Part shown: positions 16,822 to 57,030 of the stretch, one piece after another
Layout of the letters: each line of letters starts with the position of its first letter
Numbering within the stretch: position 1 is the stretch's first letter
Assembly (NCBI GenBank): GCA_951406725.2
Contig: OX597827.1
Coordinates: 45,198,001-45,262,000 of the forward strand
Direction of reading: 5' to 3'
Length of the DNA: 64,000 nt
Origin: Octopus vulgaris
Lineage: Eukaryota
Translations under genes and position numbers: made by a program
Notes under the pieces: model-generated
Told to the model about the DNA's origin: nothing
Database searches by the model: none
Seen by the model: the letters and a program-made list of their open reading frames with translations, nothing else

Positions 16822-18107
16822 TTGGGTTGGCAACTAAGTTCCCGCCGTTTTTTTAAATTTTGGAATTTATTGCGTTTTTAAATTTTGGATGTATTTTTTT
16901 CGAGAATTATATTTTTGAATCATTTTGGAATCTATTTTGATTTTTTTCTCTAGTTAATTTTAGTTACTTTTTGTCTATTTTCAGATCATTAAAATGGCAT
17001 GTCAAGTGAAGAAAAAGAGCATTTTCGACACCTCCTTCCTTTTGCTTTTAATCAAGGTTCTAGGGTCACAAAAGCTGCTTGCGACATTTGTGCTGTGTAT
17101 GGAGAGGGTGCCATAGCTGAAAGAACCACTCGTATGCCAAGTTCAAAAATGGAAATTTTGACCTCAAAGACGCACCTCGTTCTGGCCGTCCAGTTGAGTT
17201 CGATGAAGAGCGATTAAACCAACGTTTGCACGAAAATTCTTGTCAAACGACAAGGGAACTGGCAGAGAAAACGGAATGCTTCTACACTGCTATAGAGAAG
17301 CATCTTCATTCGATGGGAAAAGCTCAGAAGTATGGAGCATGGGTTCTGCATGCTTTAAGTAACAACAACAAAAATCAACGAGCCATTATCTCCGCTGGTT
17401 TGCTTGCTCGTCACCGCTCAACGCATGGACACAAGCAACGATTTCTTAACCGAACCGTTACTGGTGATGAAAAATGGCGCCTGAACATCAATATGAAGCA
17501 GCGTAAGGAATGGCTTAGCCCCGCTAAACAAGCGACACCGCGCATGACACAAGATCTTCATCCGCGTAAAACGATGTTGTGTGTATGGTGGGGCTGGGAA
17601 GGGATTATCCATTACGTATTGTTTGAACGGAACCAAAGAGTCAATGCGGAACTCTATGTTCAACAGATGGAACGACTCAACACGGCTATTCAAGAGAAAA
17701 GACCGAATCGGCAGCATGGAGTTCTGCTGCACGACAACGCCCGCCCTCATATCGCCAATATGACCAAGGTAGCCATTCAAACGCATAGCTGGGATGTGCT
17801 GCCACACCCGCCGTACTCTCCTGATTTGGTACCAACGGATTTCTACCTCTTTCGATCTCTTTTAAATGCTACGCGCAGAGTTTCGTTCAATATTGATGTA
17901 GAATTGAGAGCTTGGCTGGATCAATTTTTCGAGTCGAAATCGGGTGATTTCTACCAACAAGGTATTGAAAATCTTGTTGAACGTTGGGAAGAAGTGGTAA
18001 ACAACAAGGGTGAATACATTATTGATTAATTAGTTGTTATTTTTTTTATTAAACCTTTTAAAAAATTTAAATTAAAAAGAACAGCGGGAACTTAGTTGCC
18101 AACCCAA
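16822..18107 (+). mobile_element. Full-length mariner DNA transposon (DD34D, mellifera-like TIR)
   Basis: TIRs TTGGGTTGGCAACTAAGTTCCCGC / GCGGGAACTTAGTTGCCAACCCAA, TA duplication at 16820-21 and 18108-09, length 1286 bp. Confidence 0.97.
16999..18029 (+). pseudogene. Mariner transposase, frameshifted near 17131
   Basis: N-terminal HFRHLL...YGEGAIAERT, then after a frame change YAKFKNGNFDLKDAPRSGRP, WVLHAL (WVPHEL-like), TGDEKW, HDNARPH, YSPDLVPTD. There are 34 residues between the second and third Asp. Confidence 0.95.
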
Positions 18108-27556: not shown

Positions 27557-28007
27557 TATTGGTTTCAAATATTGGAACAAGCTCATCAGTTTTCTGAGGA
27601 GGGGGTAAGTCGATTACAACGACCCCAGTGTACAACTGGTACTTGTTTCATCAATCCCTGAAGGATGAAAGGCAAAACCGACCTCGGCGGAATTTGAACT
27701 CAGAACGTAAAGTTGGACGAAATACCGCTAAGCGTTTCGCCCAGCGTCCTAATGATTCTGCCAGCTCGCCGCCTTATAGTTATGAAATATTGGTTTCAAA
27801 TTCTGGCAGAGGCCCAGAAATTTCGGGGGAAGGAGTTAAGGCGATTATAGCGACCCCAATGCTCCACTGGTACTTATTTAATCGATCCAGAAAGGAAGAA
27901 AGATAAAATAGACCTCGGTGGAATTTGAACCTGGGACGTAAAGAGCAGAACGAAATGGTGTTAAGCATTTCGTCCAGCGTGCTAACGATTCTGCCAGGTC
28001 GCCGCCT
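27557..28007 (-). mobile_element. Two tandem SINE family B copies
   Basis: Heads end at about 27775 and 28007. Confidence 0.85.
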
Positions 28008-31155: not shown

Positions 31156-31290
31156 CAGTGGTTCTCAATCGGGGTTCATATGACCCTTGGAGATCCATAT
31201 AAGATTTTGTTGTTAAAATTTAAGTGCAATAAACTCGCTATACTTCTACTATACACAAAATATTTAAAAATTTTTTAAAAATAGAATTCC
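31156..31290. mobile_element. hAT-like MITE end
   Basis: CAGTGGTTCTCAATCGGGG terminus typical of hAT/Charlie elements; the partner end was not found. Confidence 0.5.
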
Positions 31291-31291
31291 T

Positions 31292-31760
31292 GAAAGTGTG
31301 TCAATAGCCAGCTGGAGGAGGTGTCCTCCTGGGGCTACAAGCTACAGTAGCACCCACCCTTAGGGGTTAGCCATATTTAAGTGGCAAATATACTTCACGA
31401 TGTCGTGCAGCTACTGTTTATACCTCGCTCAGAGATTTATTATTGCTTGTTTACACTTTTTCGATATCAGTGACTTTTCGTCACTGGAAAAAGGATATAT
31501 ATATATTTGCAAAGGGAGACCTAGTTTTCATCGACAACCAGTGATTGTCACACGCTGATGACGGGTCAATAACCAGAAACTCGAGCCCGTGTGTATCATA
31601 GGTTGAAGACGGGAAGGATGGCTTCCCTTTGCAAATACTGATATGGCACAGAAAGTGTGTCAATAGCCAGCTGGAGGAGGCGTCCTCCTGGGGCTACAAG
31701 CTACAGTAGCATCCACCCTCAACGGTTAGCCACATTTAAGTGGCAAATATACTTCACGAT
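31292..31760 (+). mobile_element. Retrozyme-like unit: 110-bp direct repeats with a 359-bp period around a hammerhead
   Basis: 31292-31401 is nearly identical to 31651-31760; hammerhead at 31549-31593. Confidence 0.7.
31549..31593 (+). ncRNA. Type I hammerhead ribozyme motif, cleavage triplet mutated (GCC)
   Basis: CACACG-CTGATGA-CGGGTcaataACCA-GAAA-C-TCGA-G-CC-CGTGTG; perfect stem I and palindromic stem III loop. Confidence 0.8.
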
Positions 31761-52583: not shown

Positions 52584-53150
52584 AGGCGCAGCCATGGCTG
52601 TGTGATAAGAAGCTTGTTTCGCAACCACATGGTTCTGGGTTCAGTAACACTGCGTGGCACCTTTGGCAGGTGTCTTCTTCTATGGCCTCGGGCCGACCAT
52701 GGCTTTGTGAGTGGATTTGGTAGACGGAACTATGTATATATGTATGTATTTATGTATGTATGTATGTATGTATGTATGTATGTATGTATGTATGTATGTA
52801 TTTATGTATGTATGTATGTATGTATGTATGTATGTATGTATTCATGCATGCATGCTTGCATGCATGTATGTATGTATGTATGTATGTATGTATGTATGTA
52901 TGTATGTATGTATGTATGTATGTATGTATGTATTTGTGTGTGTGTGTGTCTGTGTTTGTCTCCCCACAATCGCTTGACAACCGATGCTGGTGTGTTTATG
53001 TACCCGTAACCTGTTGGTTCGGCAAAAGAGACCGATAGAATAATAAGTGCTAGGTTTACAAAGACTAAGTCCCGGAGTCGATTTGTTCGACTAAAGGCGG
53101 TGCTCCAGCATGGCCGCAGTCAAATGACTGAAACAAGTAAAAGAATAAAA
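52584..53150 (+). mobile_element. SINE family A with expanded internal (TATG)n, ending ~55 bp from the GPCR splice donor
   Basis: Colinear with the 2094 copy. Confidence 0.88.
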
Positions 53151-53208
53151 GAATAAGAAAAAAAGAAAGAAATAAAGGTGACAAGAAACACCAAAAAAAG
53201 CCTCTTAC

Positions 53209-53574
53209 CTCGTTCCACTTGTGCCTCCAGCCGTATTCCTTCCCAGAGATTTTTCACTATCTTGCCGTAAGCCACTGACATTATGACAATAGGAAAAAGC
53301 AGGAGTATGTTGTCCAGACTGATAGTGTAGATTTTCTCTGCTAGTTTACTGGTCCAGAACTCACGGCACACGTTCAACGAGGGGAACGATCTCAGTCTGG
53401 TATAGGTGCCGATCGGGATGGTGACAATTCCAGCCAGAACCCAACAGATGGCTATGGTGAGATAGGCGTGAGATAACGTCTGCCACGACCGTGAATGGAG
53501 TGGTTTGCAAATGGCGAAGTATCTTTCCAGCGATATGGCGACTAGAGTGAAACAGCTCACTGATACGGATACAC
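53209..53574 (-). CDS. CCKR: Internal exon (TM3-TM5) of a cholecystokinin/gastrin/sulfakinin-type class A GPCR
   Basis: Translates (G)VSVSVSCFTLVAISLERYFAICKPLHSRSWQTLSHAY...CREFW...LLLFPIVIMSVAYGKIVKNLWEGIR. The SVSVSxFTLVAISLERYxAICxPLxSRxWQTxSHA block is characteristic of CCK receptors. Acceptor ttatttccAG (AG at 53576-53575) and donor G|GTAAG (GT at 53208-53207); 366 bp, phase 1-1. No other exon of the gene was recognised in the window. Confidence 0.93.
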
Positions 53575-53616
53575 CTGGAAATAATAACAAATTATCCATC
53601 ATCATCATCATCATCA

Positions 53617-53653
<37 letters not shown>

Positions 53654-54063
53654 GTGATGAAAACCACCACCACCACCACTACTAACAACAACAACAACAA
53701 CACCACGACGACCATCATCATCATTATTATCGTCACCACCACCACCATAATCATCATCATCGTCATCATCACCTTGTGTGTGTGTGCGTGTGTGTGAGTC
53801 TATCTGTCTGTCTGTCTGTGTATCCGTGTCTCTCCCCACCACCGCTTGTCAACCGGGGTTAGTGTGTTCTCGTCTCGGTAGCATAACGGATTGGCAAAAA
53901 ACACCGATAGAATAAGTACCAGGCTTAAAAAGAAATATACTAGTGGGATCGATTCGTTTGACTAAAATTTTTCAGGGCGATGCCCCAGCATGGCCGCAAT
54001 CTAATAACTGATACAAGAACAAATAAAAGATATATAAACAATTTAACATTAAACTGAAGGCTC

Positions 54064-55690: not shown

Positions 55691-57030
55691 TATCTATCTA
55701 AACTACAACGCATTCTCTTTCGCTTCTTGTGGAAAGGATGCGTCCCGATGGTCAGGCGATCCATTTGCTGTCAACACCCGCTAAAAGGAGGCATGCCGTG
55801 GTTGATGATGTGCAGACACGCGCTGAGACTGCGACATCTCTGGCTCTATGTAGACGACGGTGAACAGGTGTGGTCGCCGTTTGTGAGGCACGCTTTCCCG
55901 CAGCTCGTCTCCATGACCGAACTGCAGTCGTGGATCAAAAAGAGGCCGAGGAAGGGCGAATGGCACCGCGAGTGTCGCGTTGCTCTCAAGCAACTCTGCC
56001 GTCCCGGGTCGACCTTGAGTGACTCCAACACAACCAAAGCATTCTATAGGGGATTAGTGGAGGGGAGGTACGACGACGCGCTCGGGGCGAACCTGGACGT
56101 CGACGAGGAGTACCTGACCCGCCTGTTCGGGACGACTTTCGGGCCAGGGCCCATGGACAACTTCCAGAGATCCCTGGCCTGACAGTGTTACCGAGAAGCG
56201 CTACCCGTTCGGGATAAGCTCTATAGACACGGCTCGAGAAACACGGGGCCGACCTGCCCGAGATGCGGTCAGAGCGACGAAACCGTTCTGCACGCACTCG
56301 TGCAGTGTCCAAGAATTTCCGACCTGTGGGCTTGTGTCGAACAACTGCTGTCACGTATGGGACGAGTCGGTTTATCAGCTGAGTCTATCGTCAATATTGT
56401 CACGCCTCCTTCCTTCAAACGGGAAGGAAGAGCTATTTTCATCATCCCTGTGGCTATGGCGAAAGAATGTATCTGGTGGACGCGTCTGAAAGCATTGGAG
56501 ACAAACACTTTCCTCTCTGGTCAATCTCTCATCAACTTCTTCAAGTACCACTTGAAAAGGAAAGTGATAGTAGAGAGGCAAGTTTTGTCTAGCGAATGTT
56601 TTAAAAAAAGATGGGTGAATGTAGCAAGGATGGCACGTATGAATGACGAAGCCACCTTGAGCATAATCCTATGAACCCAGAAATTGAAAACAGAGGGTTA
56701 CCCACTTGCAAACAAATGTGGTAACATATAACAATATTGACTGAGGTTACCGTGGTCTTTTTCGTAGGCTTTTCTTCCCACGAATAAACCTTATCTGCTT
56801 CCCCCTTTACACCGTACATCTTGACACTGTGATACACGATCCCTATTGATCGTTTTTTTTCCTCTTCTCCTTTTTCCTCTTTTTTCTTTTCTTTTGTTTC
56901 TTTTCCTTTTTTTCTTTTTTCCCTTTTACGATCCCTTTTGATCGAAAACTTTTGCCACTTTTTTTTTCATCCCCATAAGAAAAGCTCTACCTTGTAATCT
57001 GTGTGCAGCCCTGTGTGGCCAATAAAGAAA
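55691..57030 (+). mobile_element. 3' fragment of a Tx1/L1-clade LINE (ORF2 C-terminus 55691-56674 plus 3' UTR)
   Basis: FRFLWKG...LKGGMP...LPVRDKL...CPRCGQSDETVLHALVQCP (CCHC zf-RVT motif)...IWWTR...FKKRW, with one in-frame TGA at 56180-82. Ends AATAAAGAAAC then (TATC)n. Confidence 0.92.

Follow-up and report, generated by a model that had tools for sequence, protein, structure and literature searches.

An old hammerhead repeat copy in the Octopus vulgaris genome: a non-LTR retrozyme family that was likely mobilized in trans by Penelope-like element enzymes

The window analysed here, meaning the whole stretch of 64,000 nucleotides of Octopus vulgaris DNA (assembly GCA_951406725.2, contig OX597827.1, positions 45,198,001 to 45,262,000 of the forward strand), carries a short non-coding element with a hammerhead sequence, the parts of which are collected in Table 1. 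Elsewhere the window holds a rhodopsin-family GPCR exon on the minus strand (53123–53848; 7tm_1, E 1.5e-23) and, on the plus strand, a Mariner-type transposase frame of 302 aa (17121–18029; Transposase_1) and a LINE zf-RVT fragment (56183–56674).

Table 1. Parts of the hammerhead element and its immediate context (positions are those of the window)
Feature	Position	Strand	Remarks
Probable 5'-truncated non-LTR retrozyme insertion, subfamily A	31292–31760	+	One 359-bp unit plus 110 bp; stops at the short 3' end of the family
Repeat 1 (unit positions 1–110)	31292–31401	+	Its 5' edge marks where truncation or deletion occurred and is no boundary of the family
'Tail' segment (unit positions 111–157)	31402–31448	+	Bounded by the family's two fixed 3' ends and internal in this copy; predicted to separate two reverse transcription (RT) start sites (PMC11167929)
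Long rod-like stem enclosing the hammerhead	31504–31637	+	Arms 31504–31517 and 31624–31637; z −5.3 (predicted fold)
Type I hammerhead	31542–31598	+	Distal stem I, stem I, core, stem II, 2-bp stem III with palindromic loop
GCC replacing GTC (U16.1 lost)	31585–31587	+	C in 2/110 units
Repeat 2	31651–31760	+	Stops at the family short 3' end (unit position 110)
Left half only of an unrelated MITE of ~270 bp	31156–31291	+	Severed at the 5' junction of the element; context, outside the element

A preliminary description of this DNA had pointed out a pair of 110-bp direct repeats at a distance of 359 bp, a hammerhead set inside a longer stem, further hairpins and no ORF, and each of these was borne out. 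The repeats are 95% identical with six differences at a spacing of 359, the stem arms and both hairpins (31314–31329 and 31468–31486) are present in the predicted fold of the unit, and the longest ATG-started frame in this unit of 44% GC is 52 aa, i.e. there is no ORF. The predicted fold of the 359-bp monomer has an energy of −124.2 kcal/mol (z −5.6), and none of 100 shuffled sequences was as stable. The hammerhead reads CACACG (31549–31554), CTGATGA (31555–31561), stem II (31562–31575), GAAAC (31576–31580), TCGA, GCC and CGTGTG (31588–31593), with the predicted cut after 31587, and the copy ends 173 nt beyond that point, exactly at the short site. No tRNA head was found between 30000 and 33000, the repeats neither start with TG nor finish with CA, no target duplication was seen at the copy (the longest word common to the flanks is 7 nt, 47 bp off the junction) and a search for a mirror arm there gave none. 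The right half of the MITE was looked for in 205 bp past the element and is absent there. As the 5' ends of the family are scattered (see below) and the MITE is severed at this 5' edge, the length of 1.3 units would reflect either a stop in copying or a later deletion, and '1.3-mer' is no defining size of the element. The window copy is likely an old, 5'-truncated fossil that is now inactive.

The state of the hammerhead fits with this. The middle base of the cut triplet is U in 107/110 units that were not chosen for it and C in 2/110 (hammerhead-selected loci were excluded from this count), so that the C in the window copy is nearly private; GTC is present in 83/94 units with a full hammerhead core. 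Going by established hammerhead chemistry, with the A15.1–U16.1 pair lost, the GCC of the window copy is likely to be inactivating, in agreement with the earlier remark that a copy with GCC instead of GUC is probably dead. Stem II, which may resemble that of the newt satellite-2 hammerhead, has a C.A mismatch at its base throughout the subfamily of the window copy, and this copy has an extra stem II mismatch (A at 31572, where 86/106 units have C). Rfam gave no hammerhead match on the window region, where there were simple-repeat miRNA matches only, and none on a subfamily-B copy (L036). A loose search for the hammerhead core in the 64-kb window gave two matches against 0.24 expected, which is weak evidence taken alone, and the case for a retrozyme stands on the family rather than on the core motif by itself. 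The second of these matches (27562–27589, minus strand) may be due to chance.

A search of the genome (2.8 Gb, 227 contigs) with the window unit gave 3826 first-look candidates, 40 of which were scored, and exact-match counts of 56 U4 cores, 79 U4C cores and 314 3'-end motifs, so the single-copy unit that would have spoken against the proposal is not what is found. Family copies are dispersed across all large contigs, and at least five related variants (A–E) of a 352–360-bp non-coding repeat could be told apart. Variant A, which includes the window copy and most of the 56 exact U4 cores, has U4 and the C.A at the stem II base and lies 6.7% from its commonest letters. Variant B is younger than A (2.9% from the commonest letters) and has U4C in 41/48 unselected units; 33 duplicate loci and 30 GIY-YIG loci were excluded from this count and from the cut-triplet, mirror-pair and allele-sharing counts. 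It forms arrays of ~5 and ~9 units (G000:C25:8521052-8522820 and G000:C2:14086400-14089550, respectively), in which all cores are U4C and internal units are nearly identical, and both of which stop at the family short 3' end. As the internal units of the C25 array show no differences over 110 bp among themselves and six to the last unit, it should be noted that some arrays probably also grew in place after insertion. The unit of variant C (L234–L263) measures 354–357 bp and shares 74% identity with the window copy; exact 22-mer matches number 974, and of the intact hammerheads listed 8/9 have a U3-A8 core. Variant D has a 353-bp unit, 82.5% identical to the window unit, with a canonical hammerhead, 343 exact 18-mer matches and copies that are mostly 96–100% identical; many of these are dimers, ranging up to 5–6-mers, and tandem matches occurred at 19 loci among the first 100 D matches listed. 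Variant E (L093:190-1450, L322–L351) has a 360-bp unit, copies that are ~97–99% identical, a canonical hammerhead and mirror-arm multimers. It resembles the window unit chiefly in the tail (95% across positions 116–154) and elsewhere only in patches, whereas D has diverged from the window unit in the tail. The family thus has the tandem arrays and GTC triplets for which the preliminary description had proposed a genome-wide search. Its assignment to retrozyme-like non-coding units with a type I hammerhead gains from variant D, which is canonical and scores 32.2 bits (E 2.6e-6) on Rfam RF00163 (Hammerhead_1), slightly under the gathering score of 34. Li et al. count as active a locus where two units or more in succession carry a complete hammerhead (10.64898/2026.07.22.740005); D loci have this structure, L290 having five intact cores, and the window copy, with one hammerhead and GCC, does not.

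Pairing in the hammerhead was compared over 17 hand-picked units of variants A–D. In this set 94.5% of cells were paired, 6/17 hammerhead pairs were altered on both sides (in stem I, in stem II and at the C3-G8 contact, including C3-G8/U3-A8) and loop 3 remained palindromic. For pairs changed on both sides, 38/500 shuffles matched the observed value in this small, related and hand-picked set, so that the comparison supports function and leaves it unproven. The U4C change of variant B has been reported to lower activity in vitro and yet to be tolerated in a viroid (PMC3088659).

At hammerhead-anchored loci the 3' end fell at unit positions 97–115 or 145–160 in 25/29 U4 and 17/19 U4C loci (the C2 array was excluded from these copy-end statistics), which gives two fixed 3' sites ~41 bp apart, while the 5' starts are scattered. 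Both of these 3' ends recur in variants C, D (15/17 loci) and E. The 20-nt 3' flanks are 82–87% AT against a background of 63%, the copies sitting in AT or (TA)n. An arm longer than 352 bp was present in only 6/29 and 7/19 length-unselected loci, most copies being shorter than one unit, and a mirror arm adjoined the 5' end at 7/29, 12/19 and 19/28 loci in three locus sets. Among 50 mirror pairs (duplicates removed, motif-anchored and long-copy searches mixed) there were 45 in which one arm was short and the other carried the tail. A common non-unit flank was sought in the first 60 loci, and only common host repeats, duplicate loci and one 5' flank present at three loci were found. As a separate observation, three dispersed copies (L003, L049 and L055) have their start in common, at unit position ~243, each preceded by similar sequence from another repeat, and are possibly a composite element.

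This is the pattern described for insertions of Penelope-like elements (PLEs), which include partial tandems, an inverted 5'-truncated copy and, at one of the ends, a tail of 30–40 bp (10.1101/2021.04.23.441226). In the PLE PAc the tail corresponds to the sequence that separates two RT start sites located internally, and the targets are AT-rich; in vitro, PAc insertion took place without hammerhead cutting, uncut RNA being inserted (PMC11167929). The fixed 3' ends, scattered 5' starts, mirror arms, tail on one arm and AT-rich targets together suggest a non-LTR retrozyme that was likely moved in trans by PLE enzymes. This insertion signature, which was absent from the preliminary description, is the main mechanistic evidence, and we consider it highly probable that the window element is an old 5'-truncated copy of a non-coding hammerhead repeat of this kind, likely pasted in by PLE enzymes. 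The two near-identical terminal direct repeats could also suggest a TRIM or other LTR-type element, or local tandem duplication of a satellite unit, the latter in keeping with the internal units of the C25 array, which look recently duplicated in place. The repeats of the window copy have no TG..CA ends and the copy shows no target duplication; in the family at large the 5' ends are scattered, mirror arms occur often and all large contigs have copies, and this explanation is very improbable; the variable 5' ends refute a TRIM identity, an alternative that the preliminary description had itself named.

A partner for the proposed retrozyme was sought among the PLEs of the same genome. Scoring 150 of 6136 candidates gave 148 matches to GIY-YIG PLEs. 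One young two-ORF PLE (L121–L126, L128) has a 781-aa RT+GIY-YIG frame that is uninterrupted in many copies, targets (TA)n and has a hammerhead of the minimal U3-A8 kind; 5/7 of its 3' ends are short and 2/7 carry a tail of ~38 nt, each then running into (TA)n. A second young PLE family (at L334) has its own pLTR and its own hammerhead. When the unit was compared with 38 GIY-YIG loci (a profile of 32 copies, and blastn) the only matches were neighbouring nested copies, and among 30 loci of the second family a single joined copy and a single fragment lying upstream were all that matched. As neither young PLE family shares sequence with the unit, no PLE is named as the partner. The joined copy (L334/L385, G000:C13:4000917-4004347; 1/30 loci of the second family) has the 3' end of a GIY-YIG PLE ORF and a C/T-rich UTR joined directly, in the sense orientation, to an E arm, the end of which lies at the tail site within (TA)n. 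At a second locus, which involves another PLE family (L271, G000:C1:71843396-71846413), RT coding sequence of the PLE together with a PLE 3' arm in inverted orientation adjoins a D arm. These two joins are possibly template-switch chimeras; they could also have arisen by insertion and deletion at shared TA targets, and two different PLE families are involved. Four of the 30 second-family loci are without their own 3' hammerhead, and no retrozyme is present there. Other candidates for PLE-linked copies were rejected: L036, L127 and L095 are separate from the adjoining PLEs, L184 has a TA run in between, and two tail motifs 4.55 kb apart enclose no ORF of at least 180 aa and no PLE match.

These results bear on an alternative in which an autonomous PLE has escaped detection and the copies are nothing but its pLTR ends left behind, without any retrozyme life cycle of their own. 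In their insertion pattern the copies match PLE ends exactly, and a GIY-YIG search in which 150 of 6136 candidates were scored will have under-sampled other PLE clades. Copies longer than one unit, however, continue head to tail into another unit, up to five and nine units, and never into an ORF; nearby PLE coding sequence ends first in its own 3' UTR, the two joined loci excepted; and the hammerheads of the octopus PLEs, as we read them, are of a different, minimal kind, whereas that of the retrozyme lineage is of the canonical type. No PLE ORF running on into a unit was found in any unit or flank examined, which speaks against the possibility, named in the preliminary description, that the element is only a pLTR attached to Penelope ORFs, and we regard stranded pLTR ends as an unlikely origin.

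The preliminary description had explained the terminal redundancy by reverse transcription past one turn of a circular RNA, and here a circle is possible but is not required, as an uncut multimer fits equally well; the evidence that bears on this consists of the fixed PLE-type 3' end, the 5' truncation point that also cuts the MITE, and several copies whose units differ from one another in a manner that favours the multimer. For the window copy we lean, with modest confidence, towards an uncut multimeric transcript. Rolling-circle reverse transcription of a monomeric circular RNA, the redundancy then representing 1.3 turns, would be compatible with PLE enzymes as well, and we put its chances a little below even. 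It would account for the sharing of minor alleles between repeats, which is 0.13–0.18 within one insertion against 0.03–0.04 between loci, and for the private variants of D, of which 17 occur in all covering units (both arms) and five in subsets, with 100 in single units. At L268, L277 and L295, however, variants occur in some units only and in both arms, which implies either two or more differing unit templates or conversion at a later time. In 9/28 pairs of adjacent subfamily-A repeats the two members differ at unit position 72, against a background of 8.8%, and seven of these pairs (the window copy included) have G then A, although this column was picked post hoc and the difference from mirror pairs (4/30) is not significant (p=0.12); the C25 array was excluded from these repeat-pair statistics. 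Arms of at least 640 bp are commoner in D, with its canonical hammerhead, than in A/B, where it looks weakened (7/16 versus 1/30, p=0.0014, a comparison confounded by age), which counts in favour of a circle. Against it, B spread with U4C in those 41/48 units and A/B with C.A at the stem II base, and the PLE PAc can use uncut RNA for insertion in vitro (PMC11167929).

Four of 24 sequencing runs, whose RNA nature was guessed, were examined for transcripts. D dominates three of the presumed RNA runs. D-type hammerhead contigs reached a depth of 366 in X1 and 66 in X3 (RNA status presumed, contigs without control), and in X13, also presumed to be RNA and represented by contigs only, a 383-nt D-type contig matches the 353-bp D unit at 29/29 listed differences. 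This contig covers one unit plus ~30 nt, the length expected of a closed one-unit loop, but a looped contig would also be produced by tandem transcripts or DNA.

Taken together, these observations suggest the following scheme. Tandem retrozyme loci would be transcribed, and where the hammerhead works dimer-assisted cutting may yield monomers of ~353–360 nt, which a host ligase could circularize, as in mussel and axolotl. A PLE protein would then bind the retrozyme RNA and nick AT-rich or (TA)n DNA, with reverse transcription starting inside the RNA at unit position ~110 or ~151–157, ~41 nt apart. The cDNA would cross the hammerhead cut site and halt at a variable point, and a second start from the other site would give the mirror arm. 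For the window copy, cDNA would have begun at the short site and run for at least 469 nt on a template that was continuous across the cut site. A more far-reaching version, which we put forward tentatively and think rather less probable than otherwise, is that of a still-active lineage of at least five ribozyme RNAs mobilized by PLE enzymes via the tail without a common pLTR, in which D would correspond to one dominant 353-nt circle and the L334 and L271 joins would be footprints of template switching. If true, this would provide direct positional evidence for the enzyme that moves animal retrozymes, together with ready RNA/enzyme pairs.

The class of element is already known, PLE dependence having been proposed in 2020 and backed by homology in frogs in a 2026 preprint. 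Metazoan non-LTR retrozymes have been described with units of 350–390 bp in mussel and 330/350 bp in axolotl, with cleavage and circles shown, and PLEs were proposed as their movers from co-occurrence (Cervera and de la Peña, 2020; PMC7229834). The octopus lineage resembles them, as described there, in unit size, GC content (<45%), canonical type I hammerhead (stem III short, its loop palindromic), a highly self-paired unit, tandem copies and the lack of an ORF or LTR, and axolotl HHR_Amex2, like octopus A/B, has a mismatch at the stem II base (PMC7229834). The 359-bp unit also lies within the 150–450 bp taken as the span of non-LTR retrozyme units. The octopus lineage differs from the mussel and axolotl elements in being known from sequence, in that its insertion ends give positional evidence and in that most A/B copies are shorter than one unit. 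Li, Clavereau and Pollet (2026) regard non-LTR retrozymes as non-autonomous PLE derivatives that occur as monomers, dimers and multimers; in Xenopus, 24/57 retrozyme families matched Repbase elements, 21 of 22 being PLEs, the evidence consisting of co-occurrence and pLTR homology, and one of nine tested dimers cleaved (10.64898/2026.07.22.740005). The octopus lineage, too, is read as non-autonomous and PLE-dependent, with monomers, dimers and multimers; unlike the Xenopus retrozymes as described in that preprint, its unit showed no homology to a PLE pLTR in the 38 GIY-YIG and 30 second-family loci compared but carries the tail and mirror-arm signature. The main text of the preprint has no mention of octopus, cephalopod, mollusc, tail or inversion. 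A paper on octopus retrozymes was not found in the literature covered, which leaves aside the supplements of PMC7229834 and 10.64898/2026.07.22.740005, and these may list cephalopod matches.

Among PLEs themselves, hammerheads and a circle-based model have been described (PMC4209133). Insertions of EN+ PLEs, as reported, share with the octopus copies the partial tandem, the 5' truncation, the inverted 5' copy, a tail at one end, AT-rich targets and a hammerhead in the repeat (10.1101/2021.04.23.441226; PMC11167929; PMC4209133), whereas the octopus unit has no RT/GIY-YIG ORF, a tail of ~41–47 rather than 30–40 bp and a hammerhead that is canonical rather than minimal. Chlamys MRC1 is likewise non-coding, with head-to-tail insertions made through PLE machinery, but elements of this type are described as having 3' sequence in common with an autonomous partner, unlike the octopus unit with the PLEs compared here, and the Chlamys PLEs with an N-terminal endonuclease are described as being without hammerheads (10.1101/2021.04.23.441226). 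To these systems the octopus lineage adds evidence at the level of single insertions, in the form of two RT start sites and a tail that only one of the arms carries, as well as a naturally occurring hammerhead series that is canonical in D and E and passes by way of U3-A8 in C to the C.A and U4C forms of A and B. With young multimers and uninterrupted PLE ORFs in one genome, the enzyme that moves the retrozyme becomes testable and, given the hammerhead series, so does the need for cutting and circularization in its movement.
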